DNA of 64,000 bases from the NCBI GenBank assembly GCA_041666545.1, contig JBAYGS010000004.1:8610-72609 (forward strand), in the 5' to 3' direction. The translations under genes were made by a program, and so were the position numbers. The notes beneath the pieces were generated by a model. The model was not told the DNA's origin and made no database searches. It saw nothing but the letters and a program-made list of their open reading frames with translations. Shown here piece by piece: positions 4,381-26,611 of the stretch. The number at the start of each line of letters is the position of its first letter. Within the stretch, counting starts at the first letter, position 1. This DNA comes from Minisyncoccota bacterium. Its GTDB lineage: Bacteria; Patescibacteriota; Minisyncoccia; Phycocordibacterales; JBAYGS01.

Positions 4381-4397
4381 GGATAGTATTTAAATCC

Positions 4398-4425: not shown

Positions 4426-4735
4426 AGACCCCACGCTCTAAGTAGGGCGGGGGTCTTTGACAATTTGAAGTAATAAGAAGATATGAGAATCGCCCAAGTA
4501 AAGTCTTGGGCTAATGCAAGTCTCATAATGTAATTTTAAAGTGATTGCTAGGATAGATGAACAATTTAACTTTTAGCAGGTTAAGTAGAAACATTCTTTG
4601 TTTTGTTCCGTTCTAAACTTAAAAAAATTAATCAAAACTTTCGCAAGAGAGTTTTTCTAATTTTTATTAAGAGTTTGATCCTAGCTCAGGATGAACGCTG
4701 GCGGCGTGGATAAGGCATGCAAGTCTAGGGGGTCC

Positions 4736-4872
4736 GGCACTTTGCGCGGAAGTGGCAAAGCGAATGACCAATAACCAAGAGACAAATTCCAAACTAGAGA
4801 GTGTTTGGTTATTGTTTATTGGAATTTGGAATTTCACTTTGTTTGCTTATGAGCAAAGTGCTGGATCACCGG
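4736..4872 (+). repeat. Hairpin-ended expansion element (IVS) within the 16S V1-V2 region, copy 1
   Basis: Starts ggcactttgcgcggaagtggcaaagcg (self-complementary hairpin) and ends cactttgtttgcttatgagcaaagtgctgg (hairpin). Same termini as the element at 6497-6642. Confidence 0.55.
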
Positions 4873-8151: not shown

Positions 8152-8493
8152 ATACCGCCCGTCAACTCAAGGGAGTTGGGAGCGCCCGAAATCTCACGCA
8201 AGTGGGCCTAAGGCGAGCTCAATGACAGGGAGTAAGTCGTAACAAGGCACGGGTAGCGGAAGCTGCTCGTGGATTATTTCAAATTGAACAACGTTGAATG
8301 CCTATTTATTTATGCATCTCAACTTAATCGGTCGTTATCGCGTATTCCATATGGATACACGATGTCCGCCTGAGGGGCTAATTTCAGGGGATAGTGATTC
8401 GATATCCTAAAAGTGAATCTGACATCGGGAAAGACTGGACGCGACACGAAAGTGTCTCGAGGAACGGAACAAAATAAAGCATGTTTCAAAAGC

Positions 8494-9794: not shown

Positions 9795-9868
9795 GCGCGT
9801 ATAGCTCAGGTGGTTAGAGCGCGTCACTGATAATGACGAGGTCCCACGTTCAACTCGTGGTACGCGCA
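9795..9868 (+). tRNA. tRNA-Ile (anticodon GAT)
   Basis: 74 nt. Acceptor gcgcgta/tacgcgc. D-arm gctc-aggtggtta-gagc. Anticodon arm cgtca-CTGATAA-tgacg. T-arm ccacg-ttcaact-cgtgg. Discriminator A. No encoded CCA. Confidence 0.8.
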
Positions 9869-9936
9869 CATTGTCCGGATGAGGGATTTTGCTTCTTGAA
9901 TGTAGAGCGGTAAAATCATCTCCCAGATGGTTTTAC

Positions 9937-9977
9937 CTGATAATGACGAGGTCCCACGTTCAACTCGTGGTACGCGC
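9937..9977 (+). repeat. Exact 41-nt duplicate of the 3' part of tRNA-Ile (anticodon loop to acceptor 3' strand)
   Basis: ctgataatgacgaggtcccacgttcaactcgtggtacgcgc is identical to tRNA positions 33-73. Lies 68 bp downstream of the intact gene. Confidence 0.6.
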
Positions 9978-10008
9978 CCAGTTTTAATTTTTAAAATTTA
10001 TTTCATAA

Positions 10009-11436: not shown

Positions 11437-11484
11437 CACGACACGAATACACGAATTAGCGCGAATGATACGAATGGGAAGGCC

Positions 11485-11512: not shown

Positions 11513-11684
11513 TATAAGGTGAGGCCCCTTGGCGGGCTTGCTTTTTTTCTCAAGATATGCTATAATTCATAACAGAACGGTACCTTGTAATTGCAAGGAA
11601 ATCCTGCAGAAGACACGCCCTAAACCGCTTGTTGCGGTCGGGTAAAACCACGGGGTTATAGCCCCACAGAAAGAAAGGAAGACA

Positions 11685-13121: not shown

Positions 13122-13145
13122 GCAGGGACTTGCAAGCAGGACAGT

Positions 13146-13183
13146 GGCCCGGGAACGCGCAGCGCGTTTCCGGGCCTTTTTAT
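13146..13183 (+). terminator. Rho-independent terminator
   Basis: ggcccgggaacgcgcagcgcgtttccgggcc + ttttt. Confidence 0.6.
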
Positions 13184-13303
13184 TACAAATATTTACAAAT
13201 AGCGGCCTTGTGCTCCAATGTACACAGGACTCCCCTGTGTAAACGGTGGAGGTGGCTAAAATAAGCCATTTTTTGGGAAATATCAATGATTTGTCAAAAA
13301 TGC

Positions 13304-13332
13304 TTGACAAACGACTTCAAATTTGCTATAAT
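13304..13332 (+). promoter_or_regulatory. Strong sigma70-like promoter (TTGACA-17-TATAAT) with overlapping TTGTCAA/TTGACAA palindrome
   Basis: ttgaca 13304-13309, tataat 13327-13332. AT-rich promoter embedded in GC-rich DNA. The inverted repeat ttgtcaaaaatgcttgacaa overlaps the -35. Confidence 0.55.
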
Positions 13333-13437
13333 ATGCACAGAAAACCTGAAAGAAAGATCTCGACTGGGTCTCGGCACTTCGCCGGATAAGGGGCACCTGT
13401 CCCACCAAAGTTGAGATGCAGAAACGAAAGAAGCGAT

Positions 13438-14448
13438 ATGAAAACAAACAAAATGCTGGAAGCTGGCAACCAAACCATCAAGGCGCGTCGCGGCGTGGTG
13501 AAGTTTGTGTCCCGCACCAAGGGATACGGTTTCGTCACCGGCGTCGAAGGCGTGGGTGGCCAGGATGTCTGGTTCCCGATTGACGACATCGGCAACATCA
13601 TCGCTGGCGATAACCATCCCAGGATCCTGCGCGACAACCGTGTGCAGCTCTTCCCGGGAACCGTGGTCATGATTCTCGCGCCGTTCGACGGCAGGGGGAG
13701 TCTGGCGACCGATGGGGTCGGACGGCTCATGGATTACGTCGACGCCGAGCGCGAAATCGCGAAGCGGCCGTACTTCCGGGTCATGCATCTGGACACGCGT
13801 TTCAACGGTCAGAAGATGACCGCGGGCGCGCGCGAGGTGCAGTACGCTGAAGGCACACTGGCCCAGCTGGAACGGGAGTTTCCGATCGGCACGCCGAACG
13901 ATCCGTTGGCGAAGGGCTATAAGACGGCGGTGGTGACGGTTCCGGCGGTTCGCTGGGATCGGCGCCAGGCCGACGGGAGCTGGAAGGTGCAAAGCACCGA
14001 TCCTCGGCGTTGGGCGCAAGCTCCGGAGCCGAAGGTTCCGGCGGTCATGCTCCAGCCGATTGCGAAGCCGACCGGGACTCCAGCGCCTCTGATGGTTCGG
14101 GTGCTCAAGGTCGGTGCCGGTGGCGGCACGCAGGTCTGGGCCGGTCCCATCGTCGAGTTGAGCAAGTCCACGGAGTTCACCGGGGCTGGCTACACCGTCG
14201 AGAAGGTCGACGGCACGGTCAATGGCGAAGTCGCCTGGACCGAGATCGCTGACCCGCGCGCGAAGGTCGCTCCGAGCGTGCCGACTCCGGCCCGCCAAAA
14301 GGCCGCCAAGCCGGCTCAACCCGTCAAGGGTTCCGGCCAGACCGCCCCCACTGGCGTGTCGGTCGCCCCGGCCAAGAAGGCGAAGTCGGTGCAGACGGTC
14401 AAGGGCCTCGACGCCCTGTCCATCGCCCCGGCTCCGGCTGGCAAGTAG
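13438..14448 (+). CDS. Cold-shock-domain-like N-terminus protein with K/A/P-rich histone-H1-like C-terminal tail; hypothetical
   Basis: GVVKFVSRTKGYGFVTGVEGVGGQDVWFPIDDI resembles a CSD (GxVKWFNxxKGFGFI...DVFxH). The C-terminus ARQKAAKPAQPVKGSGQTAPTGVSVAPAKKAKSVQTVK is low-complexity. ATG at 13438 (the track's TTG start at 13411 is also possible). GC ~63%. Confidence 0.5.
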   Translation: MKTNKMLEAGNQTIKARRGVVKFVSRTKGYGFVTGVEGVGGQDVWFPIDDIGNIIAGDNHPRILRDNRVQLFPGTVVMILAPFDGRGSLATDGVGRLMDYVDAEREIAKRPYFRVMHLDTRFNGQKMTAGAREVQYAEGTLAQLEREFPIGTPNDPLAKGYKTAVVTVPAVRWDRRQADGSWKVQSTDPRRWAQAPEPKVPAVMLQPIAKPTGTPAPLMVRVLKVGAGGGTQVWAGPIVELSKSTEFTGAGYTVEKVDGTVNGEVAWTEIADPRAKVAPSVPTPARQKAAKPAQPVKGSGQTAPTGVSVAPAKKAKSVQTVKGLDALSIAPAPAGK

Positions 14449-14471
14449 CTTGAGTCCTCACGGACTCGCAA

Positions 14472-14506
14472 CCCCCGCAACACGCAAGTGTCTGCGGGGG
14501 CTTTTT
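14472..14506 (+). terminator. Rho-independent terminator
   Basis: cccccgcaacacgcaagtgtctgcggggg + cttttt. Confidence 0.6.
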
Positions 14507-14541
14507 GTTAAGAACCCTTACGAATAGGGCACACGAATAAG
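14507..14541 (-). repeat. 35-bp repeat family, copy A (reverse orientation)
   Basis: gttaagaacccttacgaatagggcacacgaataag is the reverse complement of the consensus yTTATTCGTGTGCCCTATTyGTAAGGGTTCTCAAC. Confidence 0.7.
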
Positions 14542-14603
14542 CAGAATGCTTTACAAATTTTCTATGCCGTGATACAGTTCTAAAGGAAAGGTGGTGATAA
14601 AAA

Positions 14604-15191
14604 GTGCGTTGTTATACAGCCTATTTCCCAAGGCCCGAGGAGCTCCCTGATAATCTCAAGGATGCTGACTTCAAATTGGGTGACCTAAAGCTGGTTGACG
14701 GTATTAAGGTTGAGGGTGAGAATGACGCGATCATTCTGGGGCAGGTCCCTGGTGATCGAGTTGGCTTGCCTTTGAGCAAGTCTCGTCCACCCGAGGTGAG
14801 TGATGGCCACATCTTTTCCGGTGATCTAATTGATGAAGATGGCGAGCAGGTGCTTGCGCTTTCAGCAACAACCCCGCCGAGACATGTGACCGAAAAAGCT
14901 GTGCCGATTTTACTTTGCGTTCGGTTGTTTTGTTCGGGTGATTCCAAGATCGACGGTTTCTTTCGAGTCTTGGCAGAACCAGCTTCAACTGTTCTTGCGG
15001 TTGGGGGGGTTGCTAAGGTTGGCAGTCATCAAGGGGCTTTTTACCAGGATGTTTTGGTTCTTTTGGAACAGGGTGGCGTTATTCAGGTTAGGCCGGCGGC
15101 GGTCCATCCACCCAAAGATTTCGTTATCCGCTACACGGGCACCGGAATCAATTATTTGACGATGCAGGACTATTTGTCTCTGCCTCCGTGA
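14604..15191 (+). CDS. Hypothetical protein (195 aa)
   Basis: GTG start with AAGGAAAGGTGG SD. TTTACA-17-TACAGT promoter at ~14553-14581. Own terminator. GC ~52%. Confidence 0.45.
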   Translation: MRCYTAYFPRPEELPDNLKDADFKLGDLKLVDGIKVEGENDAIILGQVPGDRVGLPLSKSRPPEVSDGHIFSGDLIDEDGEQVLALSATTPPRHVTEKAVPILLCVRLFCSGDSKIDGFFRVLAEPASTVLAVGGVAKVGSHQGAFYQDVLVLLEQGGVIQVRPAAVHPPKDFVIRYTGTGINYLTMQDYLSLPP

Positions 15192-15197
15192 AATCTT

Positions 15198-15229
15198 CCG
15201 CCCCTCGCGTCGCGCGAGGGGCTTTTCTT
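15198..15229 (+). terminator. Rho-independent terminator
   Basis: ccgcccctcgcgtcgcgcgaggggc + ttttctt. Confidence 0.6.
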
Positions 15230-15256
15230 ATTTGTGTAAAGTTTTCCGACTCCTTC

Positions 15257-15304
15257 TTTTGGTTATTGTTTCTTGGTTATTGATTATTGTTCGAGGGTTC
15301 TTAA
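15257..15304 (+). repeat. 'ggttattg'-rich spacer plus partial 3' end of the 35-bp repeat
   Basis: ttttggttattgtttcttggttattgattattgtt followed by cgagggttcttaac (matches the repeat 3' end aagggttctcaac). Confidence 0.5.
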
Positions 15305-15311
15305 CTATCTT

Positions 15312-15346
15312 CATATTCGTGTGCCCTATTTGTAAGGGTTCTCAAC
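15312..15346 (+). repeat. 35-bp repeat family, copy B (forward)
   Basis: catattcgtgtgccctatttgtaagggttctcaac. Confidence 0.7.
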
Positions 15347-15405
15347 TGTTTTCTTTTCCCAGTTATCCTGCTATTCTTGAGCAGAAAGTTCTTCCCAAGG
15401 TTTTT

Positions 15406-16032
15406 ATGAAAGCTTTTGAATTCCGATTCGGTCCGAATGGTAAGGCTGTCTGGACTATTGGTATCGGTCGCGAGGTTTTCAAATTTCGCGACAAGACTTG
15501 TCACGGCTTGTCGCTGGGACAGGAAGGTTGTCGGCATCTTGGCCGCAACGGCAACGAAAAAATCCTGTTCGATCGATCTCAACCGCCGATTGTTGATGCC
15601 AGTTGCGCTCGGGTCCTGGAGTGCTCGATTACGGCAGTTTCTACCAGGAAAAAGGACCGTCGGCCGGCTTACCGTTCGCACCACTTTATCTTATCAGCTC
15701 CTCGTGATAACGACTCCAGAATTCTGGTCAGGGTTGTCTCGAGGTCGTTGCTCAACAGGTATCGTTCGAGCGCTGATGGTAAAGTGAGCTTTCTTAAAGA
15801 CCCTACTCGACAGCCGATCGCGCTCGGTTTTGGTCATAATGTCTTCAATGATCTAAACAGTGGTGTCTGGACCGACGAGCTCTTGATTATGAATCTCGGC
15901 GACGCCGTGAATGTTCATCCGGCCGGAATCCAGACCGTATTCTTCGATCAAGTTTTATATTATGATGACCCTGCCAGTCTTCCTATGTGTGTGGCTGGCT
16001 ATGGCTATAAGCGCGATCGGCATTTGGACTGA
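15406..16032 (+). CDS. Hypothetical protein (209 aa from ATG 15406; track ORF starts TTG 15232)
   Basis: MKAFEFRFGPNGKAVWTIGIGREVFKF... Preferred start is downstream of repeat copy B. Own terminator. Confidence 0.4.
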   Translation: MKAFEFRFGPNGKAVWTIGIGREVFKFRDKTCHGLSLGQEGCRHLGRNGNEKILFDRSQPPIVDASCARVLECSITAVSTRKKDRRPAYRSHHFILSAPRDNDSRILVRVVSRSLLNRYRSSADGKVSFLKDPTRQPIALGFGHNVFNDLNSGVWTDELLIMNLGDAVNVHPAGIQTVFFDQVLYYDDPASLPMCVAGYGYKRDRHLD

Positions 16033-16043
16033 TTTTTCACTTC

Positions 16044-16072
16044 CGCCGCCCCAACCTTTCTGGGGCGGTTTT
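16044..16072 (+). terminator. Rho-independent terminator
   Basis: gccgccccaacctttctggggcgg + tttt. Confidence 0.6.
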
Positions 16073-16107
16073 CATATTCGTGTGCCCTATTTGTAGGGGT
16101 TCTCAGC
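16073..16107 (+). repeat. 35-bp repeat family, copy C (forward)
   Basis: catattcgtgtgccctatttgtaggggttctcagc, immediately after the terminator and ~37 bp before murD. Confidence 0.7.
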
Positions 16108-16143
16108 CGTTTTTTAATGCTATGGTCGTGCTATGATGGCGTC

Positions 16144-17487
16144 ATGAAAATTCCAGATGGCTATTTCAAGGGTAAAAAAATAACGGTAATGGGACTGGGT
16201 CTTTTGGGTCGGGGGGTGGGGGATATCAAATTTCTGGCCGAAGCCGGGGCTGATTTGATTGTGACTGATTTGAAATCTGAGGATGTTCTTAGTCCATCTT
16301 TGAAACAACTTCAAAATCTTAGAACTTCAAAACCAATAAACTTTGTCCTGGGCGAGCACCGTCTAGAAGATTTTAGAAATCGAGATTTTATTCTGAAAGC
16401 GGCCGGTGTTCCGTTGGATTCAGTTTATATTACTGAAGCAAAAAAATGCTGGATTCCAATAAAGATGAGTGCCTCCTGGTTTGCGGAATTGGCCGAAGGA
16501 GTAAAAATTGTCGGAGTGACCGGCACGCGCGGGAAATCAACCACCACAGTTTTAATTTACGAAATTCTCAAAAAGGCCGGCCGGCAAGTTTTTCTGGGTG
16601 GTAATATTCGAGGGGTTTCGACTCTGGCATTTCTTAACGAGGCTAAGCCTGGAGATATTGCAGTTTTGGAATTGGATTCCTGGCAACTCCAAGGTTTTGG
16701 CGAGGCCGAATTTTCACCTCAAGTGGCAGTATTTACGACTTTTCTCGATGACCATCTGAATTATTATAAAGGCGATAGAGATATGTATTTTGAAGACAAA
16801 GCCAATATTTTTAAATACCAGAAAAAAGGCGACGTTTTGGTGGTTAGCGAGATGGTCACGGAAGATGCAAGATTCAGGATTCATGATTCAAGAATGAAAA
16901 TAGCAAAGAAGGAAGAGGTGCCAAAAGATTGGAAGATACAAATTCCCGGCGAGCACAATCTTTCAAATATCGCCTGCGCTTTTGAGGCGGTGAAGGTGCT
17001 CGGGGTGCCCTTGGCAACAATCAAGGAGGCGGTCGAGGAGTTTAAAGGAGTCGAGGGACGCCTGCAAGATCTCGGAATTTTCGACGGGGTGAGGATTTAT
17101 AATGACAATAATGCCACTACACCCGACGCGACAGTCGCCGCCCTAAAAGCTTTGAATAAAAATATAATTTTAATTTGTGGCGGGTCGGACAAGGGTTTAG
17201 ATATGACGGCCTTAGTTACGGAAATTCCTAAACATTGTAAAGCGATCGTTTTGCTTTCCGGCTCTGGTTCTCTTTCACTACTCACTACTCACTACTCACT
17301 ACCAACTAAAGTGGAAATGAAAGAGGTCGCAAATTTAGGCCAAGCACTGGACGCATCACTCAGGTTGGCCGCTAAAGGAGACATTATTATTTTCAGTCCT
17401 GCTTTTGCCTCATTCGGTTTGTTCAAAAATGAGTATGACCGCAATGATCAGTTTTTGGAATTGGTTGAGAAATTAAAAAACCGATAA
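16144..17487 (+). CDS. murD: UDP-N-acetylmuramoyl-L-alanine--D-glutamate ligase MurD
   Basis: KKITVMGLGLLGRG N-terminal Rossmann, GVTGTRGKSTTT P-loop, C-terminal SPAFASFGLF. Start preferred at ATG 16144 (MKIPDG...); the track start at 16117 is in-frame. Confidence 0.85.
   Translation: MKIPDGYFKGKKITVMGLGLLGRGVGDIKFLAEAGADLIVTDLKSEDVLSPSLKQLQNLRTSKPINFVLGEHRLEDFRNRDFILKAAGVPLDSVYITEAKKCWIPIKMSASWFAELAEGVKIVGVTGTRGKSTTTVLIYEILKKAGRQVFLGGNIRGVSTLAFLNEAKPGDIAVLELDSWQLQGFGEAEFSPQVAVFTTFLDDHLNYYKGDRDMYFEDKANIFKYQKKGDVLVVSEMVTEDARFRIHDSRMKIAKKEEVPKDWKIQIPGEHNLSNIACAFEAVKVLGVPLATIKEAVEEFKGVEGRLQDLGIFDGVRIYNDNNATTPDATVAALKALNKNIILICGGSDKGLDMTALVTEIPKHCKAIVLLSGSGSLSLLTTHYSLPTKVEMKEVANLGQALDASLRLAAKGDIIIFSPAFASFGLFKNEYDRNDQFLELVEKLKNR
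17270..17305 (+). repeat. (CACTACT)n heptamer tandem repeat segment, in-frame inside murD
   Basis: ctctttcactactcactactcactactcactaccaact encodes SLSLLTTHYSLPTK. Near-identical to 28814-28852. Confidence 0.7.
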
Positions 17488-17519
17488 CCTTGCGGTCATC
17501 GGTGAAGTTTAATCAGAAA

Positions 17520-18416
17520 CTAGAATCGGTTTACCACGACCAGATTCCGTTTTTTGCTGTCGGGTCCGTTGCCAGCCCGCCTGCAAGACCAGAGAGCAAA
17601 GTCACCGCTTGAATCCTTGTCGCCAAAGGTGTCGAGACCGTCATGAAACGGGACAGTCGGTTCGACTTTACCGAAGGACCTGAACTGTCTTGCAATCAGT
17701 AGCTCCAAGTCGAGACAGCCCAGGTCGGGGCTTCCTAAAAATACCTCATGACCAAAATGTTTGGTCAGGTAGCGAATCATTGACCGGTTACGTTCGCCGT
17801 ATGTCACCTCGTGGACACTGTGGCAGAAATTACGGCCGGCAATTCCGCAGGTGATGAAGAAGCGTAAGTTTTTCGGACGCTCACCTTGGAAACTCTTGAG
17901 AGCATTTCGGACCACTGATTGGTACAAATGAGTCCCAAAACCTTGGCCGATGGCCACACGGTCGATAACTGATTCTCGGCCAGCGTGAAAGACAACGGTT
18001 TTGTCGGTTTCAGTGCTCCAGAGGATTACCGTCGGGCAATCGGCCGAGGAGATCATGAAACTGTGCCAAGCCGGCAACTCAATTCCGTCAGCTTCGCCGT
18101 TTACCATGGGTGTTTTTTCGACTGGGCCGCTGACTTCCGTCCCGCGCAGAATATTTGAGGAATCGACATGAAAACAGGTGTCGAATTCGTTGAGGCGGGC
18201 GATTCGCCGGTTGAACTTTGAGGCGTTGGGCGCATAGAAAGTTCGGACGGCAAAACTTGAACAGACTCGGGCAATCATCGGACGGAAATTGCTTGCAATC
18301 GGCTTTCTCAATTGTTCCAGATTCCAATCAATTATCTGATCTTGGATTTTTCGGCCGAAGACAGAGACAACCAAGCGATCATGCAGGGCTTTCGACCATA
18401 AAGGGGCGGGTTTCAT
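17520..18416 (-). CDS. Laccase-domain / YfiH (PgeF) family protein, putative peptidoglycan editing factor
   Basis: 298 aa. ADCPTVILW...VVFHAGRESV matches the ADCVPVLL...HAGWRG signature of DUF152/PgeF. Confidence 0.55.
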   Translation of the reverse strand: MKPAPLWSKALHDRLVVSVFGRKIQDQIIDWNLEQLRKPIASNFRPMIARVCSSFAVRTFYAPNASKFNRRIARLNEFDTCFHVDSSNILRGTEVSGPVEKTPMVNGEADGIELPAWHSFMISSADCPTVILWSTETDKTVVFHAGRESVIDRVAIGQGFGTHLYQSVVRNALKSFQGERPKNLRFFITCGIAGRNFCHSVHEVTYGERNRSMIRYLTKHFGHEVFLGSPDLGCLDLELLIARQFRSFGKVEPTVPFHDGLDTFGDKDSSGDFALWSCRRAGNGPDSKKRNLVVVNRF

Positions 18417-18519
18417 TTGTCCTTTCTTTTGATGAGCTATTCTTGGGTGATTCTACCCGCTTGGCCAAAAGTGTCAATTGATTGCTTTTGTTTTGGTATT
18501 TTTTTGCTAAGATGACCCT

Positions 18520-19848
18520 ATGGCTTTAAATTTGAATGAGGTCCGGAAAGTTTATTTTCTAGGCATTGGTGGGATCGGTATTTCGGCGATTGCCCGGATG
18601 TTTTTGGCTCGAGGTGTCAAGGTGTCCGGTTCCGATATCGGCGAAAGCGAGATAACTAAAGAGCTGGTTAGGCTTGGAGCAAAAATTATTTTTGGCCAAG
18701 ATTTGAATTTGATTCCCAAGGATTCAGATCTGATCATATATACCAAAGCCCTTGAGGTTTCAGCTCCGGATTTTTTGAAGCAAGTTAAATCTTTGAACAT
18801 TCCCGTTTTGTCTTATCCGGAAACTTTGTCTTTGATTTCGAAAGGTAAATTTACTATCGCGATTGCCGGGACACACGGTAAGACCACGACGACCGCGATG
18901 ATCGGGAAAATTATGATGGACGGAAAGTGTGATCCCACCCTGATTGTCGGCTCTTTGATTCAAGGTCCGACCTTGGATCGGGAAGAAGGTCGGACCTTTG
19001 CTACGAATTTTGTAAGCGGCAAAAGCGATTACTTTGTGATTGAGGCTGATGAATATCGGCGGGCCTTTCTCAATCTTTACCCGAAGATTTTAGTGATTAC
19101 CAATATTGATGCTGATCATTTGGACTATTATAAAGATTTGGAAGATGTTCAAAATGCTTTTGTCGAGTTGGTCGCCAAAGTGCCCAAAGATGGCATTTTG
19201 ATTTGTAATCCCAATTTGCCAAATTTGGCGCCGGTTTTGGATTGCGCCGCCTGCGCGATTTTGGACTACAGCTCGACTGATATTTCCGAGCTCAAACTTA
19301 AAGTGCCAGGTCGTCACAATCGCGAGAACGCACAGGCGGCGCTAACTCTCGCCGGAGTTCTGGGAATTGATCAAAAAGTGGCCCGAAAATCTCTCGAAAA
19401 TTTCTCTGGTACTTGGCGCCGTTTTGAATACAAAGGGGAGACCAAGTCTGGGGCTTTGGTTTATGACGATTATGCCCATAACCCGCACAAAATACGGGCG
19501 GCGCTTCAGGGTGCACGAGAGTTGTATCCAAAATCCAAAATTTTTGCTGTCTTTCAGCCACATCTTTTTAGTCGGACTAAAACCCTACTTTCAGAATTTG
19601 GTCAGAGTTTCGAGGATGCCAATGAAGTTTTGCTTTTGCCGATCTATCCCGCCCGCGAGGTCTTTGATGCTTCTATTAATTCTGAAATGCTGGGTGAGAA
19701 AATAAAATCAAATGGGCAGACAGTAAGAAATTTCCATGATTTTAATTCTGCTGCAAACTATTTAAAAACTCACTCCCAAAAAGGTGATATTGTCATGATT
19801 ATTGGAGCAGGGGATATAAATAATCTAACCCGACAGATTCTGAAATGA
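18520..19848 (+). CDS. murC: UDP-N-acetylmuramate--L-alanine ligase MurC
   Basis: YFLGIGGIGISAIARMF..., GTHGKTTTTAMIG P-loop, Mur ligase central and C-terminal domains. Confidence 0.9.
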   Translation: MALNLNEVRKVYFLGIGGIGISAIARMFLARGVKVSGSDIGESEITKELVRLGAKIIFGQDLNLIPKDSDLIIYTKALEVSAPDFLKQVKSLNIPVLSYPETLSLISKGKFTIAIAGTHGKTTTTAMIGKIMMDGKCDPTLIVGSLIQGPTLDREEGRTFATNFVSGKSDYFVIEADEYRRAFLNLYPKILVITNIDADHLDYYKDLEDVQNAFVELVAKVPKDGILICNPNLPNLAPVLDCAACAILDYSSTDISELKLKVPGRHNRENAQAALTLAGVLGIDQKVARKSLENFSGTWRRFEYKGETKSGALVYDDYAHNPHKIRAALQGARELYPKSKIFAVFQPHLFSRTKTLLSEFGQSFEDANEVLLLPIYPAREVFDASINSEMLGEKIKSNGQTVRNFHDFNSAANYLKTHSQKGDIVMIIGAGDINNLTRQILK

Positions 19849-19879
19849 CTTTTAACTAAGTCGCTGGTAATTAAAAGTA

Positions 19880-19909
19880 TATTCTGATATTCTTGAGAAC
19901 ATCAGAATA
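19880..19909 (+). promoter_or_regulatory. 30-nt palindromic operator-like motif upstream of the ArsR-family gene (copy 1)
   Basis: tattctgatattcttgagaacatcagaata contains the inverted repeat ATTCTGAT...ATCAGAAT. A second copy is at 20190-20219. Confidence 0.4.
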
Positions 19910-19935
19910 GTCAGTCGATTCTTTAACTTGGGTAA

Positions 19936-20220
19936 ATGGCAAAATTGGATCATAAAACTTATCGGGCTCTAGAGCGATTGGTGCGCGGGTTTTCTAATCA
20001 CCGACGAATTGAAATGCTTAATCTTGTAGAAAATAATCCGGAGCTATCTGTTGAGGAAATTTCTAGAAAATTGAATATTAATTATAAAACTACCGCGGAT
20101 CACCTGCGACGCCTGACAATTGCCGGGCTATTATTGAAGAGATCGGATTCAGTTTCGATTAGACACAAACTGACTTCGCGTGCTAACCATGTTCTGAAGT
20201 TCTTGAGAACATTAGAATAA
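19936..20220 (+). CDS. ArsR/SmtB-family winged-helix transcriptional regulator
   Basis: 94 aa. HRRIEMLNLVENNPELSVEEISRKLNINYKTTADHLRRLTIAGLL is an HTH_5-type motif. Confidence 0.6.
   Translation: MAKLDHKTYRALERLVRGFSNHRRIEMLNLVENNPELSVEEISRKLNINYKTTADHLRRLTIAGLLLKRSDSVSIRHKLTSRANHVLKFLRTLE
20190..20219 (+). promoter_or_regulatory. Second copy of the 30-nt operator-like motif, overlapping the arsR 3' end and just upstream of rsmI
   Basis: tgttctgaagttcttgagaacattagaata, 25/30 identical to copy 1. Shares the core TTCTTGAGAACAT. Confidence 0.35.
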
Positions 20221-20229
20221 TAAAAAATT

Positions 20230-20904
20230 ATGGGGACACTTTTTGTTATAGGGACACCAATTGGTAATCTGGAGGATATCACTTTACGGGCTTTGAGAAT
20301 TTTCAAAGAGGTTGATGTGATTTTGTGTGAGGATACTCGCACGACTCAAAATTTGCTCAAGCATTATCAGATTATCGACAAGAGGCTTTCGGCTTACAAC
20401 GACCAGAAGAGTGGCATTTCGGCCGAGAAGGCGATTGCATGGCTTGAGGAGGGGATGAATCTGGCTTTGGTGACGGATGCCGGGACACCGGGAATTTCCG
20501 ATCCTGGCTCAATGCTGGTCAAAGCTGTCAGGGAAAAAATGCCGGAAGTAAAAATTGAGTCGGTGCCGGGACCGAGCGCGCTTACCTCGGCGTTATCAAT
20601 CTCAGGTCTTTTGATCAATGATTTTGTTTTTCTCGGATTTCTTCCGCACAAGAAGGGGAGAGAGACTTTGTTCAAAGAAATCGCTGGCATGGAAAGAGCG
20701 GCCATTTTCTACGAATCGCCACATCGGATTTTGAAAACCTTGGAATCACTTCAGAAATTTTCTCCGGAGAAAAAAATTACGATTGTTAAAGAATTGACCA
20801 AAATCCACGAAGAAGTCATTTCTGGCACCGCTTCCGAAGCCCTAGAATTTTTTGCTAAAAATAAGGACAAAGTAAGAGGGGAGTTTGTTGTAATTGTAAA
20901 CTAA
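20230..20904 (+). CDS. rsmI: 16S rRNA (cytidine1402-2'-O)-methyltransferase RsmI
   Basis: MGTLFVIGTPIGNLEDITLRALRIFKEVDVILCEDTRTTQNLL. Tetrapyrrole-methylase fold. Confidence 0.85.
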   Translation: MGTLFVIGTPIGNLEDITLRALRIFKEVDVILCEDTRTTQNLLKHYQIIDKRLSAYNDQKSGISAEKAIAWLEEGMNLALVTDAGTPGISDPGSMLVKAVREKMPEVKIESVPGPSALTSALSISGLLINDFVFLGFLPHKKGRETLFKEIAGMERAAIFYESPHRILKTLESLQKFSPEKKITIVKELTKIHEEVISGTASEALEFFAKNKDKVRGEFVVIVN

Positions 20905-20925
20905 ATACATAGGCCAGACCTATGT

Positions 20926-20954
20926 ATTGACAGAAGTTGTAATTTATGTATAGT
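20926..20954 (+). promoter_or_regulatory. Sigma70-like promoter (TTGACA-16-TATAGT) for the second island
   Basis: ttgacagaagttgtaatttatgtatagt. Preceded by the palindrome tacataggccagacctatgta. Confidence 0.45.
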
Positions 20955-21087
20955 TAGAAGTGGAAGGTTCTTTGAGTTAAACGGGTTTTAGACCCAAAAG
21001 AGCTAAAACGAGACAAGTTGGTCTTTGGCGAACACGTCTCAAACAAGGGCCTAAAGCACCAAGTGCTCGGCCAGAGAAGGACAAGTT

Positions 21088-21789
21088 ATGTGTGATAACA
21101 AGTCTGCAATCATGACGACTCGGCAGGCGGCCGAGTTGGACCATGCGTTCGGGAGAAACGGTTGGACCTCGGAGGATGTGAAGAAATTGTCGGCGGGGAA
21201 TACCTTGGTGCAAGTTCTAAGAGTTATTCGCAATCAAGCCGAAATCGTCCCTAAGCCGAAATCCCAACCCGCACTCCCAAAAATACCAGCCCCTCTTATC
21301 ATCGACCGCACCACTCCATTCAACCCTGTAGCTTTTATTGGCCAGGGTTCGACCATCTGGCGTGGGCCCAAAGATGGTGACGGTCTCATCGGCGAGGAAG
21401 AGCAGGACAAACGCTCTCTCGCTCTTACGGTATTTGATGCGTCCAAGATCACCGCCGCCAACTTCCAAACCGGTTTTTACCCTGGTGAGACGGTAATCAC
21501 CGGTGAGGTCAAATTGGTTCGGCTCACCACCCAAATGATCCAAGCCGATGCCAAGATTGCCGAGGTGCTCTACCGGGAGGAGGGTCAAAAAACCCTCCGC
21601 CACCTCTACGACACCTTCGGTGTTACCTGGTTGGAGTTTATGGGCACAGTTCTGCGCAATTATCCGTATGGCAGTCGCGGCGTCCTCCTCCTCCGCCGCA
21701 AATTCAGTGGTTTGTGGATCTGGAACCATAGCCTGATTAGTGGTCGTGATTTTGTCGCTAGTAATTGGGCTCTTGGTTTAGCAGGTTAG
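21088..21789 (+). CDS. Hypothetical protein (233 aa), GC-elevated, SD-bearing
   Basis: GAGAAGGA SD 8 nt upstream. No known domain. The antisense ORF 21217-21729 is judged spurious. Confidence 0.4.
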   Translation: MCDNKSAIMTTRQAAELDHAFGRNGWTSEDVKKLSAGNTLVQVLRVIRNQAEIVPKPKSQPALPKIPAPLIIDRTTPFNPVAFIGQGSTIWRGPKDGDGLIGEEEQDKRSLALTVFDASKITAANFQTGFYPGETVITGEVKLVRLTTQMIQADAKIAEVLYREEGQKTLRHLYDTFGVTWLEFMGTVLRNYPYGSRGVLLLRRKFSGLWIWNHSLISGRDFVASNWALGLAG

Positions 21790-21793
21790 TTAT

Positions 21794-21829
21794 CCGGCCG
21801 GAAACGCTTTGCGTTTCCGGCCTCTTTTT
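21794..21829 (+). terminator. Rho-independent terminator
   Basis: ccggccggaaacgctttgcgtttccggcc + tcttttt. Confidence 0.55.
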
Positions 21830-21935
21830 ATGCTTTTCTTCTGTTCTTATACTTATACCTATACTTCATACCTACACTATCTCCCTGTTCCACTCGTGTC
21901 TCTTTTGTGGTATAGTCGCGCCAGAAAGGATTCCT

Positions 21936-22304
21936 ATGAGCACACCGACGACGTTCCGTGCTCATCTGGAAATCGATGGGCACTTGAAAAATGGAGAGAT
22001 CCACAAGGCCCTGAAGGCAATTGATGGTTTTCCTAAACCCGAAAGAGTTGCCCAGTTGCTTAAGGTCTTGGCCAAAGTCAAAACCTACGAGCGGACTGGC
22101 AATTGGAAAGAGTGGGTGGAAACTAATTTGCACGCGCTGGCTGCCAAGTTTCTCGAGTTGGGCGAACTTACCAAGGCCGAGGAGGTGATTGCGATGATGT
22201 CTATATCCAACAAGAGACGAGGGGAGGCCGAAGCGCTTCTCAAGCAAACAGTCGCTAATATGCAGGAAGCTTCTCGGGGAGCTGATCAGATTTCGGAAGA
22301 GTAG
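21936..22304 (+). CDS. Hypothetical protein (~122 aa from ATG 21936)
   Basis: MSTPTTFRAHLEIDGHLKNGEIHKALKAIDGF... AAGGA SD. The in-frame upstream extension to 21765 is hydrophobic and low-complexity, likely not translated. Confidence 0.4.
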   Translation: MSTPTTFRAHLEIDGHLKNGEIHKALKAIDGFPKPERVAQLLKVLAKVKTYERTGNWKEWVETNLHALAAKFLELGELTKAEEVIAMMSISNKRRGEAEALLKQTVANMQEASRGADQISEE

Positions 22305-22309
22305 ACGAT

Positions 22310-22345
22310 GGCCCAAGTTTTGCTCGGCAAAACTTGGGCCTTTTA
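22310..22345 (+). terminator. Rho-independent terminator
   Basis: gcccaagttttgctcggcaaaacttgggcc + tttt. Confidence 0.6.
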
Positions 22346-22346
22346 A

Positions 22347-22483
22347 GTTGAGAACCCTTACGAATAGGGCATGCGAATAAGGATTCAATTAGGAACCGTT
22401 GGTTATTGTTTTTTGGCCATCGGTTATTTTTGCCGGTTCCAAACCCTTTATATTCGTGTGCCCTATTCGTAAGGGTTCCCAAC
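22347..22483. repeat. Complete composite unit of the 35-bp repeat family: reverse copy D (22347-22381) + 'ggttattg' hairpin spacer + forward copy E (22449-22483)
   Basis: gttgagaacccttacgaatagggcatgcgaataag ... ggaaccgttggttattgttttttggccatcggttatttttgccggttcc ... tatattcgtgtgccctattcgtaagggttcccaac. Confidence 0.7.
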
Positions 22484-22543
22484 AATTTTTACACTCCTTC
22501 CAATCTAGAGTACAATAGCTAAAGCAGTTAATTTTTAAATTTC

Positions 22544-22777
22544 ATGTCAAAAATTTCCTACATTATTTTTTTGGGTGTTCTAGTTTTTCTCGCACCATTC
22601 ACCGCTTTTCCTTCGGCTTGGAAAACTGTTTTCTATGTAGTGGCCGGATTTTTAATCGCGGTTATCGGTTCGCTCTGTCGAAAAGAAAATCGCGCCAAGG
22701 CTTTGCCAAAAGATTTCCAAGCACCAGCCGTGAGCAGTTCTTTTGTGGAAAATAATCACTCGATTCAAAATAATTGA
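22544..22777 (+). CDS. Small two-TM membrane protein, hypothetical
   Basis: 77 aa. Overlaps the start of the next gene by 4 nt. Confidence 0.35.
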   Translation: MSKISYIIFLGVLVFLAPFTAFPSAWKTVFYVVAGFLIAVIGSLCRKENRAKALPKDFQAPAVSSSFVENNHSIQNN

Positions 22778-24018
22778 TTATGCCTTGGCTTCGGTCCACA
22801 ATTAAAACTAACACTGGCCGAGCCGTTATTTTTGGCGGTATTTTGGTGGCAATAATTGTGGCGGTCGGCTATTTTCTGATTCCCAGCTTTTTGTTGCAGA
22901 CTTACTCAAGCGGTAGTGTGAACCAAGCTTTGAAGATTTTGGCCACCAGCACGCCATTTGTGGTGACACACGTGGCAACCCCGGTGCCGGTCAAGGGTAT
23001 TTATATGACCTCCTGTGTGGTTGGCTCGAAATCTTTGCGTGAAGGTCTTAAAAAAATTGCCAATGAGACCGATGTCAATTCAATAGTTATCGACATCAAA
23101 GATTTTTCAGGAAAAATTTCTTTTGAGACTGATAACCCAAAATTGAAAGGAGCGATTTCGGAACGATGTCTGGCGCGCGACATGAAGGAATTTGTCGGTG
23201 AATTGCATCAAGCAGGGATTTATGTCATCGGCCGAATCACGGTTTTTCAAGATCCTTATTATACGGCCATCCGGCCTGATTTGGCGATAAAAAAATCCAG
23301 TGACCATGAAGCGGTTTGGAAAGATTTTAAGGGTTTAAGTTTTATCGAGGCCGGAGCCAAAGATTTTTGGAGTTATATTGCCGAGCTTTCGGTTGAATCA
23401 TACAAAATTGGTTTTGATGAGTTGAACTACGACTATATCCGCTTTCCCTCGGACGGTAACATGAAAGATATTTATTATCCTTTCAGCGAGGAAACTGTCA
23501 AAGCAGATCCGGAACTCGGGATGGCCAAGGTGCTAAAATCTTTTTTTGCTTTTCTTTCGGGTGAAGTTCGGTCCAAAACCAAAGCCAAAATTTCTGCCGA
23601 CCTTTTTGGCATGACGACTACCAATCCGGATGATTTAAATATCGGCCAACTGCTGGAGTATACTTTGCCGTATTTCGATTATGTGAGCCCGATGGTTTAC
23701 CCGTCGCATTACCCGAAGGATTTTAATGGCTGGCTTGATCCGAACAAGCATCCTTATGGTGTGGTTAAATATTCGATGGACAAAGCGGTGGTGCGGGTAA
23801 AACTTTTCAATGATACGGTGGCCTCGACCAGTGTCGATGTTTTGCGACCTTGGCTTCAAGATTTTAATTACGGCGGAACTTACGGCGTGCCGGAAGTTCA
23901 GGCTCAAATGTCGGCGACTTACGATTCCGGTCTTGACTCGTGGCTTTTGTGGTCGCCGTCTAATCGCTACACAATCAAAGCACTTGGGCCAATCGCTTCA
24001 ACCACTCCGAAAGACTGA
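22774..24018 (+). CDS. Putative glycoside hydrolase-like protein (DUF4015/GHL10-like TIM-barrel), N-terminal TM anchor
   Basis: 414 aa. Motifs VIDIKDFSGKISFETD, GIYVIGRITVFQDPYY, FDELNYDYIRFPSDG are typical of the putative glycosyl hydrolase-like 10 family. Confidence 0.45.
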   Translation: MIMPWLRSTIKTNTGRAVIFGGILVAIIVAVGYFLIPSFLLQTYSSGSVNQALKILATSTPFVVTHVATPVPVKGIYMTSCVVGSKSLREGLKKIANETDVNSIVIDIKDFSGKISFETDNPKLKGAISERCLARDMKEFVGELHQAGIYVIGRITVFQDPYYTAIRPDLAIKKSSDHEAVWKDFKGLSFIEAGAKDFWSYIAELSVESYKIGFDELNYDYIRFPSDGNMKDIYYPFSEETVKADPELGMAKVLKSFFAFLSGEVRSKTKAKISADLFGMTTTNPDDLNIGQLLEYTLPYFDYVSPMVYPSHYPKDFNGWLDPNKHPYGVVKYSMDKAVVRVKLFNDTVASTSVDVLRPWLQDFNYGGTYGVPEVQAQMSATYDSGLDSWLLWSPSNRYTIKALGPIASTTPKD

Positions 24019-24023
24019 CCTCA

Positions 24024-24086
24024 TCTTATATTCATGTGCCTCGGTTATTGTTTCTTGATTATTGGTTATTGCCTCAAGGCTCCTAA
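24024..24086 (+). repeat. Degenerate/scrambled copy F of the 35-bp repeat (5' half + 'ggttattg' spacer + 3' half)
   Basis: atcttatattcatgtgcc + tcggttattgtttcttgattattggttattg + cctcaaggctcctaac. Confidence 0.4.
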
Positions 24087-24447
24087 CTGTGTATAACTCA
24101 TTGACAGCCGAAAAAACGAGGCGTAGACTTGAAAATGGATAGTTAAACGGTAGACGTGGGGTGTGAGGACGCCCCGTGCGTACCAACGTCGTTTACCATA
24201 GGAACAAAGTCAGTCGTGGAAAGTAAAGTTATGGCAAAACAAGTGAATGGCGCTCCTGTAGCGTCTGGCAAACCCAACGGTCAGTCATCTACCTGTCGGT
24301 CTCGCGCCACATCGGCGGATATTCTCGGACGTCCCTTGTCCAAGGAGCCACCGGCGGTTCGGATGACCAGTCGTTTGGGAGTGGCGGTGAGCATGGAAAT
24401 GCTCGGTGTTCCGGTTGCCGCCAGGTAATCAGTTTTGCTCAAATCAA

Positions 24448-24514: not shown

Positions 24515-26611
24515 ATGGCTACTCCTGAACAAGTCACATATTTTGCGCAGACTGATTATCGCAATAAACGCACACCTTTTGGCATCAAAGCCAAAGATCG
24601 AACCCGCCATGTCTATGTGATCGGTAAGACTGGTATGGGCAAGTCCACACTTCTCGAAAACATGGCCATTCAGGATATCAAGAATGGCGAAGGTTTTGCT
24701 TTTATTGACCCACACGGCAAAACGGCGGAACTTCTGCTTGATTATGTGCCGGAGAATCGGATTAAAGACGTTTTATATTTTGCGCCCTTCGATATGGATT
24801 ACCCAGTGGCTTTTAACGTGATGGAAGATGTCGGGGCAGATAAGCGACACTTGGTGGCGTCTGGTCTCATGAGTACCTTCAAAAAGATTTGGGTGGATGC
24901 TTGGTCGGCGAGAATGGAATACATTTTGAATAATACAATTTTGGCACTTTTGGAATATCCGGGTGCGACCCTGCTCGATGTGAACCGAATGCTGGCGCAG
25001 AAAGACTTTCGCAAGAAAGTCGTCGAGAATATTAAAGATGTCTCGGTCAAATCATTTTGGGTTGACGAATTTGCCAAATACACCGACAAGTTTGCGGCCG
25101 AAGCGACACCGGCGATTCAAAACAAAGTTGGTCAGTTTACTTCGAACCCACTGATTCGTAACATCATCGGTCAGCCGAAATCGACTTTTGATATCCGGCA
25201 AATGATGGATACCAAAAAAATTCTGATTATCAACCTCTCCAAAGGCAAGGTTGGCGAGACCAATGCCAACTTGTTGGGTAGTATGATGATTACCAAGATT
25301 TATCTTGGCGCCATGAGTCGTGCCGATGTGCCGGAAAAAGTTTTGAAAACTTTGCCGAACTTTTATCTCTATGTCGATGAATTTCAATCTTTTGCCAACG
25401 AGTCGTTTGCCAACATTCTCTCGGAGGCCAGAAAGTATCAATTAAACCTGACAATTGCGCACCAGTACGTCGAACAAATGTCCGAAGAAGTCCGGGCGGC
25501 GGTTTTCGGCAACGTCGGTACCATGATTTCTTTCCGAGTCGGCGCTTTCGATGCCGAGCTTTTGGAAAAGGAGTACGCGCCGCAGTTTACTGCGGAAGAT
25601 ATGGTGAACCTTGGCTTCGCGCAAATTTATCTGAAACTGATGATTGACGGTGTCAGCTCCTCGCCATTTTCGGCTCTAACTTTGCCACCAATTGCTCCGG
25701 CCGGAGTTAAGTTTACCAATGAAATTATTAAGTCTTCTCGTGAGCAATTCGCTAAGCCCCGCGTGACGGTGGAGGAGGAAATTGCCAAGGTCCAAGATGT
25801 TGGTGGTATGGGCGGGAAAATTGCCACTGCCCCGAGCGCTTCTTCCAGCACTCCTTCGGCCTATCCACCACGAGTACCAAGTCAGTCATCTCGAGATTTT
25901 TCTCGACCAGCCGGCCCGTCGGCGTCAGCAACTCCGTCAGCTCCAAGAAGTGATTTTAGAAGTCAGTCGGCGCCAAGACCGCCGGAAGCTAGAGCCGAGA
26001 GCCGTCCGTTCGAAAGCCGACCGGCTGAACCGAAAAATGAAAGACCGCCTCTTGAAGGCGCCAAAAGCTTCAAAGAAGCTCTCACTCCGCATTTGGCTAA
26101 AATTCAGGCCGAATCGGTTAAACCTGTCGAAACCCCAAAACCAATCAGCCTCAATCAGCTTAAAAAAGAGCCGGTAAGTGGACTGCCAAAGACCGAACAT
26201 AAACTTGGAGAAGGAGAGGCCTCAGATTTGAAAAAGGCTTTGGCCGATCTGATTAAGACTTCAGCTGGACCGACTGCAACTCCAACTCCGACCTCGGCCG
26301 TTCCGATCGCGACCCAAAGTGAAAAACCAAAAGTTGTGCCCGTGCCGAAAGTAGAAATTAAGCCCGCTCAAAATTCCAGTCCTCGAATTCATGAAAAGGC
26401 TTATCAAAATTCACCTAAACCGGCACCTCAAACTGCTCCAACACACCAATCTAATCAAACAAAACCGATACAGCCGGCTCGGCCGTTGCAGTCGGCCGCC
26501 CTACCTCACTCGGCTCATCAAAATCAGCCAAATAATTTTCCGCCCAAACCAAAAGGCGTGCCGGACGAGCTTTTGAAAAAAGTTCTCCAGGTTGATAAGC
26601 CGGGTCAATGA
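24515..26611 (+). CDS. TraD/TraG (VirD4)-family coupling-protein-like P-loop ATPase, soluble, with ~300-aa disordered P/S/A/K-rich C-terminal tail
   Basis: 698 aa. Walker A VIGKTGMGKST. Walker B-like LYVDEFQSF. TIAHQYVEQM. Architecture of the T4SS DNA-binding-domain/AAA-like (DUF87-related) proteins. No N-terminal TM. Confidence 0.5.
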   Translation: MATPEQVTYFAQTDYRNKRTPFGIKAKDRTRHVYVIGKTGMGKSTLLENMAIQDIKNGEGFAFIDPHGKTAELLLDYVPENRIKDVLYFAPFDMDYPVAFNVMEDVGADKRHLVASGLMSTFKKIWVDAWSARMEYILNNTILALLEYPGATLLDVNRMLAQKDFRKKVVENIKDVSVKSFWVDEFAKYTDKFAAEATPAIQNKVGQFTSNPLIRNIIGQPKSTFDIRQMMDTKKILIINLSKGKVGETNANLLGSMMITKIYLGAMSRADVPEKVLKTLPNFYLYVDEFQSFANESFANILSEARKYQLNLTIAHQYVEQMSEEVRAAVFGNVGTMISFRVGAFDAELLEKEYAPQFTAEDMVNLGFAQIYLKLMIDGVSSSPFSALTLPPIAPAGVKFTNEIIKSSREQFAKPRVTVEEEIAKVQDVGGMGGKIATAPSASSSTPSAYPPRVPSQSSRDFSRPAGPSASATPSAPRSDFRSQSAPRPPEARAESRPFESRPAEPKNERPPLEGAKSFKEALTPHLAKIQAESVKPVETPKPISLNQLKKEPVSGLPKTEHKLGEGEASDLKKALADLIKTSAGPTATPTPTSAVPIATQSEKPKVVPVPKVEIKPAQNSSPRIHEKAYQNSPKPAPQTAPTHQSNQTKPIQPARPLQSAALPHSAHQNQPNNFPPKPKGVPDELLKKVLQVDKPGQ

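Follow-up and report, generated by a model that had tools for sequence, protein, structure and literature searches.

ERIC elements are imperfect palindromes of ~127 bp that lie between genes and often within operons; they are conserved across genera while their locations differ, and they occur as length variants that arose by insertions at fixed internal points. Group IIC introns home to transcription terminators. The genomes of the Candidate Phyla Radiation (CPR, Patescibacteria) are small, and few mobile elements are believed to reside in them. Here we analyse a stretch of 64,000 nucleotides (the window) from a CPR/Parcubacteria contig of 115.5 kb (ENA ERZ27249449 k141_1363904) with ~44% GC and nearly all genes on the forward strand, in which five near-identical copies (A to E) of a 35-bp sequence, called the core below, and a sixth, split copy (F) were found between genes. 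According to our proposal, which we consider probable, Parcubacteria (Paceibacteria-type CPR) possess an apparently undescribed family of small non-coding, interspersed intergenic repeats whose members are gained and lost, and the 35-mer represents its conserved core. In kind, the family may be likened to REP/BIME, ERIC and the miniature inverted-repeat transposable elements (MITEs). The repeats do not delimit mobile gene cassettes.

Both strands of the window were searched with the 35-mer consensus given in an earlier note on this DNA, with 100 shuffles as background. All five copies lie where that note had placed them (Table 1), each with 1–3 mismatches to the consensus, while none is expected by chance. 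The length of ~35 bp holds for the core, whereas the repeated unit extends to ~52 nt and consists of a half copy of the core, termed P (GGTTCYNAAC), followed after 6–9 nt by the 35-mer. The sixth copy, which had been described as scrambled, turned out to be an ordered core with its loop swapped for 33 nt of heptads, reading ATCTTATATTCATGTGCC, then TCGGTTATTGTTTCTTGATTATTGGTTATTGCC, then TCAAGGCTCCTAAC. This architecture (left end, heptads, right end) is also intact at site C of the relative L053, and the stretch left of copy B (15258–15305) represents the right part of another heptad-split core.

Both ends of the core are conserved and asymmetric; they read (Y)WTATTCGYRTGCC(C), which can also be written ATTCGYRTGCC(C), and TAAGGGTTCTYAAC. 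They are not inverted repeats of each other, but they pair through their inner bases (GCCC/GGGT) and enclose a loop whose length is free; we found it as 7 nt in the 35-mer, as ~33 nt of GGTTATT heptads, as a 33-nt hairpin or as an 18-nt GC palindrome. Two ATTCGT hexamers, 13 nt apart, are contained in the core. It occurs alone, with a preceding P half, as an inverted doublet (D-E) or as the apex of palindromes of 105–130 bp. The doublet is an inverted pair with 33-nt arms that are 91% complementary and 71 nt apart, and its fold is far more stable than that of shuffled sequences (z = -10.8). Copies B and C are also present in an independent assembly, contig L038, which ends inside the repeat, i.e. 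the repeat caused an assembly break.

Table 1. Positions of repeat copies, their parts and adjacent features in the window.
Feature	Position	Strand	Remarks
Pyruvate kinase gene (pyk)	10009–11436		
Half arm of ACGAAT-type palindromic element, CGACACGAATACACGAATTAGCGCGAATGATACGAAT	11439–11477	+	Directly after the pyruvate kinase stop codon; outside the range of the earlier note
Core copy A	14507–14541	-	Abuts T-run of ORF345 terminator (stem 14472–14500); 8 nt upstream of the -35 box of the ORF195 promoter
ORF195 promoter	14550–14578		Promoter-like site
Heptad run GGTTATT / GTTTCTT / GATTATT	15258–15291	+	Loop insert of truncated split core; intact equivalent in L053, 1405–1483
Module P (3' half of core), GAGGGTTCTTAAC	15293–15305	+	6 nt before core B
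Core copy B	15312–15346	+	
Core copy C	16073–16107	+	With CGTTTT, 16073–16113: 41-bp insertion relative to L051, GTTTT at both edges
murD	16144–17487		
Core copy D	22347–22381	-	P-like module 22381–22397 attached; abuts terminator 22310–22340
D-E spacer	22398–22434	+	Contains TTGGTTATTGTTTTTTG
Core copy E	22449–22483	+	Preceded by P-like module 22436–22447; 4 nt upstream of promoter 22488–22516
Copy F (split core)	24023–24087	+	Left half 24023–24040, heptad insert 24041–24073, right half 24074–24087
Promoter downstream of copy F	24101–24129		13 nt beyond copy F

The position of the copies relative to terminators is less uniform than had been reported. Only A, C and D stand directly against the T-run of a terminator, whereas core B is found ~90 nt past its terminator, behind heptads and P, and core E follows D. 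Within the lineage of the window, the T-run of an intrinsic terminator is abutted in either orientation by A, C and D and by the copies in L039, at site B of L055, at site C of L053 and in L005. Forward copies have a T-run again after their downstream edge, and this arrangement would be compatible with a short target duplication. T-runs also flank the site B copy of L055 and the doublet D-E, although the T-rich context makes a target duplication ambiguous. At site C, the T-run after the copy keeps the -35 region of the murD promoter, which is T-rich, intact.

Between pyk and murD (11685–16032) there are four function-unassigned genes, ORF478, ORF345, ORF195 and ORF208 (open reading frames, ORFs, of 478, 345, 195 and 208 amino acids), each with its own promoter-like site and terminator. 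Their GC content is 0.60–0.65 in ORF478 and ORF345, an excess of 0.1–0.2, and ~0.51 in ORF195 and ORF208. The block could be followed in five related contigs (L039, L051, L052/L053/L054 and L055); L040, which is used below for sites beyond murD, apparently belongs to the same genome as L039. MurD is 64% identical to that of the window in L039, 77% in L051 (ORF208: 76%) and 74% in L052/L053/L054 (ORF195: 59%), and ORF195 is 57% identical in L055. The four genes have the same order from pyk to murD in the related contigs, with amino-acid identities of 32–77%, and the same genes are raised in GC in L039 and L052, the two contigs for which GC was measured. An alignment of the gap upstream of ORF195 in the window, L052, L055 and L039 revealed that terminator, -35 and -10 boxes and a Shine-Dalgarno (SD)-like sequence are all kept. 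Because gene order, GC content, promoters and terminators are shared by the relatives, the block is old and inherited and not a set of recent cassettes. The genes between the repeats had been called compositionally foreign and SD-bearing. Raised GC and SD-like sequences were indeed seen, as were the promoters and terminators ascribed to these genes, which are conserved in relatives, but a recent foreign origin does not follow, since GC excess and synteny are common to the relatives.

The copies themselves come and go, each as a discrete unit, whereas the genes, terminators and promoters around them remain conserved. After ORF478, the window and L052/L053 have no copy and L039 has a reversed long-loop core (L039, 5709–5774; L051 and L055 do not cover this site). 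At site A, the core is reversed in the window and forward in L052, whereas L055 and L039 have none. At site B, heptads, P and core in the window correspond to a 67-nt long-loop core in L055 and to an empty site in L052 and L039; neither site A nor site B is covered by L051. Site C (not covered by L055) is occupied by a core in the window and, in L052/L053, by a heptad-split core plus a core with the 18-nt GC palindrome in its loop, and is empty in L051 and L039. The two remaining sites are covered by L040 only. There the D-E doublet is absent, the gap being 95 bp instead of 239 bp with the terminator and the -10 box, TACAAT, kept, and so is copy F, with 23 nt instead of 82 nt between the stop codon and a conserved TTGACA.

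The clearest case is site C, where window and L051 differ by a clean indel of 41 bp that is edged by GTTTT on either side and whose flanks can be aligned; the direct repeat can be taken as GTTTT or as 7/8 matches over GCGGTTTT/GCCGTTTT. Here, a single 35-mer that lacks terminal inverted repeats acts as the unit of insertion. Related genomes show insertion polymorphism at sites A, B, C, D-E and F and at the L039 site. The long-loop insert is common to L039 and L055 although it is found at different sites, which indicates that core variants themselves propagate. Taken from these alignments, the pattern across relatives reads as one of gain and loss.

Two observations concern genes near copy D. 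The gene that precedes it is really ~123 amino acids long (ATG near 21933) and is a homologue of a 127-amino-acid gene of L040. Upstream of it, an ORF of 233 amino acids (21088–21789; GC 0.53; own terminator 21796–21822) is missing from the orthologous place in L040. This is a real difference in gene content, yet the ORF is not bracketed by repeats.

Beyond the window, the exact pattern ATTCGNNTGCCCTATTYGTARGGGTTC, a 27-nt core, was identified in 4 species-representative Parcubacteria metagenome-assembled genomes (MAGs) from different aquifers and in 32 metagenome contigs, with 28 distinct contexts over MAGs and contigs. All 33 occurrences examined, including those of the window, are intergenic. 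In 16 distinct elements the core forms the apex of an imperfect palindrome of 105–130 bp with ACGAAT arms, laid out as CGACACTAATyTACGAAT...GACACTAATA-core-TATTCGTGTCATTCG...ATTGGTGTCG. The arms of these full elements are built of ACGAAT/ATTCGT units with a period of ~10 bp, and the fold z-scores range from -6.7 to -7.7. Within housekeeping operons, full elements occupy the spaces from one cistron to the next (rplF-rplR, groES-groEL, secE-nusG), and they are also found upstream of rpsL, fusA and rpiB. The same core can have other arms, of the AACCTT or heptad type in L014 and L015 and of GGTTATT heptads in the window. Conversely, ACGAAT arms are also seen around other centres or as halves, and some contigs have several of them within a few kb; the half arm after pyk, for example, matched the full-element profile in an nhmmer search (E = 9e-5) and also emerged from a scan for CGAAT clusters. 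Core and arms constitute a modular, mosaic repeat family.

In 14/16 full elements, the core-forward strand folds better (summed -688 vs -594 kcal/mol), and this strand is richer in G-U (G-T) pairs; relative to the flanking genes, the core lies antisense in 21/29 cases. Inverted doublets are rare, with D-E as the only one among ~40 cores. As to density, ~81 kb of the genome under study (the window plus ~17 kb of flank) contain five cores and F, all within 10 kb, and no further core was found in the ~17 kb flanking the window. For the other loci, the match lists suggest, as a rough estimate, one extra core in every ~50 kb and an arm-type element in every ~15 kb.

The claim that the family is novel was borne out. 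Rfam gave nothing on the repeats, whether at the gathering score or with E ≤ 1, IMG/VR does not contain the core pattern, the full element had no blastn match in 5,426 complete E. coli genomes, and a plasmid collection contained no match to the repeat. Seven IMG/VR matches to the arm pattern are chance matches and not elements. We found no paper on the repeat, by sequence or by topic, nor on any interspersed repeat family in CPR/Patescibacteria. A descent of the core from a fragment of a resident gene, rRNA or intron was considered and dropped, as blastn-short returned nothing. An origin from phages or plasmids was likewise discarded in view of the empty IMG/VR core and plasmid searches.

In behaviour, the family is closest to ERIC/IRU elements, with REP/BIME mosaics and Correia- or RPE-type MITEs also close by analogy, while in sequence it is a member of none of them. 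With ERIC/IRU it shares imperfect palindromes (here 105–130 bp) that are intergenic and often intra-operon, a low to moderate copy number, a sequence conserved across genera at differing sites, and insertions at fixed internal points. The likeness is one of behaviour only, as there is no sequence similarity (see the E. coli search above) and the phylum is another one; moreover, the asymmetric core of 32–35 nt also stands alone here and combines with interchangeable arms of short tandem repeats. The REP/BIME and REPIN-RAYT systems resemble it in having short extragenic hairpin units as singlets, inverted doublets (as D-E) and mosaics, often at the 3' ends of genes near terminators, and in a single unit without classical terminal inverted repeats. 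On the other hand, no RAYT (Y1 transposase) gene is present among the window ORFs, doublets are rare here, with one seen, and the number of copies looks much smaller than in REPINs, which typically reach hundreds. Small MITEs of compact genomes (Correia/NEMIS of Neisseria, RUP/BOX of Streptococcus, RPE of Rickettsia) are similar as non-coding repeats with presence/absence polymorphism close to promoters and terminators, and D-E and the full elements have inverted termini as well. They differ in that our single core is asymmetric and lacks terminal inverted repeats, that the short direct repeat is T-rich and the target duplication uncertain, and that no parent insertion sequence with the same ends was seen in the loci examined. 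Finally, the ends of IS200/IS605 and their palindromic derivatives as well as group IIC introns also combine asymmetric ends with a hairpin, strand asymmetry and insertion beside terminator stem-loops or T-runs; no TnpA/TnpB or intron-encoded protein is associated with our repeats, though, and the cores give no Rfam group II signal.

Whatever their orientation, copies in the lineage of the window land at or next to the T-runs of intrinsic terminators, and a short direct repeat rich in T marks their edges. We propose that they would be moved in trans by an enzyme encoded elsewhere. This enzyme may be one that recognises hairpins or single strands (HUH/Y1-like or IS110-like) rather than a classical DDE transposase, because the single core lacks terminal inverted repeats, its asymmetric ends enclose a hairpin and one strand folds better. 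The clustering within 14.5–24 kb would most simply be a matter of opportunity: in a compact genome there are few gaps where a terminator precedes a separate promoter. Of the alternatives that had been offered to cassettes, a MITE-like spread is the one which the evidence favours. A more specific version of the proposal, which we put forward only as speculation, is that the core, rather than being a decaying MITE, could be the recognition module of a CPR insertion system directed to hairpins or single strands, homing to terminator T-runs and with a loop that accepts nested modules, or else that ends and variable hairpin could make up a new class of structured RNA.

Several points speak against a mobile repeat family. 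No transposase, recombinase or integrase Pfam domain was detected in the window's 52 ORFs of at least 90 amino acids, and the ORFs beside the elements in seven other loci include no mobilising gene recognisable by eye (this list was not profile-scanned). The copy number looks low, the other loci usually having one exact core per contig of 30–210 kb. The core is near-identical across genomes whose MurD proteins are only 55–64% identical, which purifying selection on a host function would explain no less well than the conserved site of an enzyme. A single 35-bp core without terminal inverted repeats is no textbook MITE. At site C, the direct repeat is a T-run, so that a deletion by microhomology in L051 is conceivable. 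It has also to be kept in mind that the only same-strain contigs are identical, i.e. no polymorphism was seen at strain level.

Some further observations were made on candidate enzymes. The only mobility-related match among the window ORFs is a LAGLIDADG endonuclease in an intron of the 16S rRNA gene, and the same Pfam scan of ORFs of at least 90 amino acids retrieved no Xer gene, tyrosine recombinase or RAYT gene. In contig L036, an ORF that looks reverse-transcriptase-like by eye, from an N-terminal motif and not from a profile scan (3673–4728), adjoins an element of the full type (3550–3658). ORF195, flanked by A and B, was considered as a RAYT-like transposase and rejected, since it is conserved in relatives without flanking cores and has no Pfam or PHROG match.

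Near-perfect conservation of 27–35 nt across divergent genomes at low copy number would also be expected if the core were the binding site of a conserved Parcubacteria DNA-binding protein (a regulator, nucleoid protein or insulator) that recognises the ATTCGT/ACGAAT hexamers. The site would then act just upstream of promoters or between cistrons and be kept by selection, not spread by transposition. Two such hexamers in the core and the same hexamer with a ~10-bp period in the arms suit this explanation, as does the fact that cores end 3–13 nt upstream of -35 boxes in the lineage of the window (A, E, F, L052, L055). This proximity, however, is automatic for anything that lands in a terminator-promoter gap of 0–33 nt. 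In different relatives, the core is reversed, forward or absent at one and the same conserved promoter, copies are missing from sites B, C, D-E and F in relatives, the genes that follow downstream are unrelated (rpiB, nusG, rpsL, fusA, groEL, murD), and the loop tolerates insertions of 18–33 nt. We therefore regard a protein-binding site as unlikely. The related suggestion of a shared operator is weakened in the same way, the core being absent, inverted or replaced at orthologous promoters.

The element might instead act as RNA, be it a small RNA, a signal for processing or stability of operon transcripts or a ribozyme-like motif, formed by the GCCC/GGGU stem and the variable hairpin. In favour of this, the two strands differ in folding, the better one also being richer in G-U pairs; structured RNAs typically show conserved flanks around a hairpin whose length varies; full elements within operons must be transcribed through; and fold z-scores go down to -10.8. 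A strong fold, however, is expected of any DNA palindrome, and in 21/29 cases the strand that folds better runs antisense to the genes beside it. Moreover, both orientations occur in equivalent contexts (A vs C; window vs L052 at site A), the heptad inserts do not self-pair, there is no Rfam match even at E = 1, and the independent variants are too few for a covariation test. Overall, an RNA role appears rather improbable to us.

That the repeats are recombination sites (attC-like or Xer/pdif-like) bounding mobile gene cassettes, as the earlier note had favoured, is suggested by the inversion of A and B around ORF195, by a core ending in YYYAAC like the integron core site and by the size of the 137-bp D-E hairpin, which is within the attC range, but this reading is refuted by the same gene content and order in relatives without any gene insertion polymorphism at the bracketed sites, where only the repeats vary, and we give it almost no credence. 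The bracketed genes are syntenic in the five related contigs (L039, L052/53, L055, L051) whether flanked by repeats or not, and every one has its own conserved promoter and terminator, in contrast to integron cassettes, which are mostly promoterless and vary in presence. The doublet reads GTTGAGA...CCCAAC, the reverse of the attC order RYYYAAC...GTTRRRY, and A, B and C are single, non-palindromic cores. The 11-6-11 symmetry of the 28-bp Xer/pdif sites (11-bp arms, 6-bp spacer) is not visible in the core, which by inspection pairs only over GCCC/GGGT round its 7-nt loop, with unrelated outer parts. Nor did the scan of the window's ORFs yield the site-specific recombinase that a cassette system would call for, be it an IntI-type or another tyrosine recombinase.

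Two other ideas were abandoned. A collapsed group II intron might be suspected because the core has GTGTG and ends in AC, but seven conserved bases precede the GTGTG, and the cores have neither an intron signal nor similarity to the intron of the 16S gene. Inverted sites of the Ter type would imply a replication terminus, whereas the GC skew rises steadily across the window, so that no terminus is located here.

The heptad module is also found in rRNA genes. Its 17-mer TTGGTTATTGTTTCTTG, with up to 2 mismatches, occurs 5 times in the window (0.03 expected) and 4 times in L042 (0.01 expected), a contig that overlaps the first 6.3 kb of the window at 99.8% identity. One of these places is the 16S V1 expansion (4805; region 4763–4822), others are the 23S rRNA expansions of L042 (976–1010 within region 955–1080, and 2774–2790), and the L042 23S gene has the same tandem pair of heptad variants as is seen beside copy B. 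These matches hint that the same small modules populate rRNA expansion segments.

The 16S rRNA gene of the window is interrupted by a group I intron (5597–6032) and is also split by a group II intron (6891–8073; D1–D4 matches 7243–7408 and 7458–7571) with the LAGLIDADG ORF at 7488–8066; the last ~210 nt of the 16S gene follow at 8074–8284. Its 3' end (8255–8284) reads GGAUUAUUUCAAAU, where the consensus is GGAUCACCUCCUUU, and the canonical anti-Shine-Dalgarno sequence appears to be missing. Nonetheless, across the four contigs that were aligned at site A, ORF195 and ORF478 have SD-like sequences (AAAGGAAAGGYGGTGATAAAAATG) that are strong and conserved. Downstream of the 16S gene, the 3' part (9827–9870) of tRNA-Ile(GAT) (9795–9869) is duplicated 110 bp further on (9937–9980) with 98% identity; this duplication may be the scar of an integration at the tRNA.

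For the genes of the pyk-murD block, searches gave little. None of the four has a Pfam or PHROG match, and a PDB sequence search with ORF478 and ORF345 returned nothing meaningful. ORF195 is represented by only three clusters in a large protein collection, and its AlphaFold model is unusable (pLDDT 39). Upstream of ORF478, a leader of ~150 nt is conserved in three genomes (window 11540–11684; L039 ~3990–4181; L052 60–236), with the blocks ACCTTGTAAWTGCAAG ... GGGGTTATAGCCCCA ... AGAAAGAAAGG and no Rfam match at E ≤ 1; it is a candidate cis-regulatory RNA. A second conserved leader, GGTAGACGTGGGG...(hairpin)...CGTCGTTT, is located downstream of the conserved TTGACA promoter that follows copy F (window 24129–24200; L040 ~2860–2930) and precedes a small ORF and a TrwB/VirD4-like ATPase gene (24515–26611). 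The part of the window from 28 to 64 kb is an envelope glycosylation cluster.

Another heptad, CACTACT, forms a run of 39 nt in murD (17269–17307) that is 92% identical to a run (28813–28851) in the ORF of a GT4 glycosyltransferase (28075–29223). It is in frame in both ORFs, encodes LLTTHYSL and is kept at the DNA level in the murD gene of L039 despite the MurD identity of 64%. Similar runs are intergenic in L001 (2222) and L042 (~6696, minus strand).

The ArsR-family gene of the window has a palindrome upstream (19880–19909), and a 20-nt copy of one half of this palindrome is present at the gene's 3' end (20196–20225). In L039, a palindrome, aatctattctcaaattcttaagaatttgagaatagatt (12318–12388), likewise lies upstream of its ArsR gene. 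The ArsR palindrome is probably an autoregulatory operator unrelated to the core. The core sequence reported as shared with these repeats, the 8-mer TTGAGAAC, occurs 6 times against 2.75 expected, a number reached by 5/100 shuffles, and is thus at chance level.

With an exact 27-mer across many groundwater Parcubacteria, the family is easy to track. The repeat sits in ribosomal-protein, groESL and str operons and turns over fast at gaps between terminator and promoter; it could serve as a marker for strain typing and as an entry point to the DNA-moving enzyme of these organisms. For the genes studied here, inverted repeats round GC-rich genes are no evidence of gene cassettes or of recent transfer. 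The repeat is also a possible explanation of how short modules enter the expansion segments of rRNAs, and if the core indeed belonged to an insertion system directed to hairpins or single strands, the non-intron rRNA insertions typical of CPR would have been seeded by the same mobile hairpin modules.

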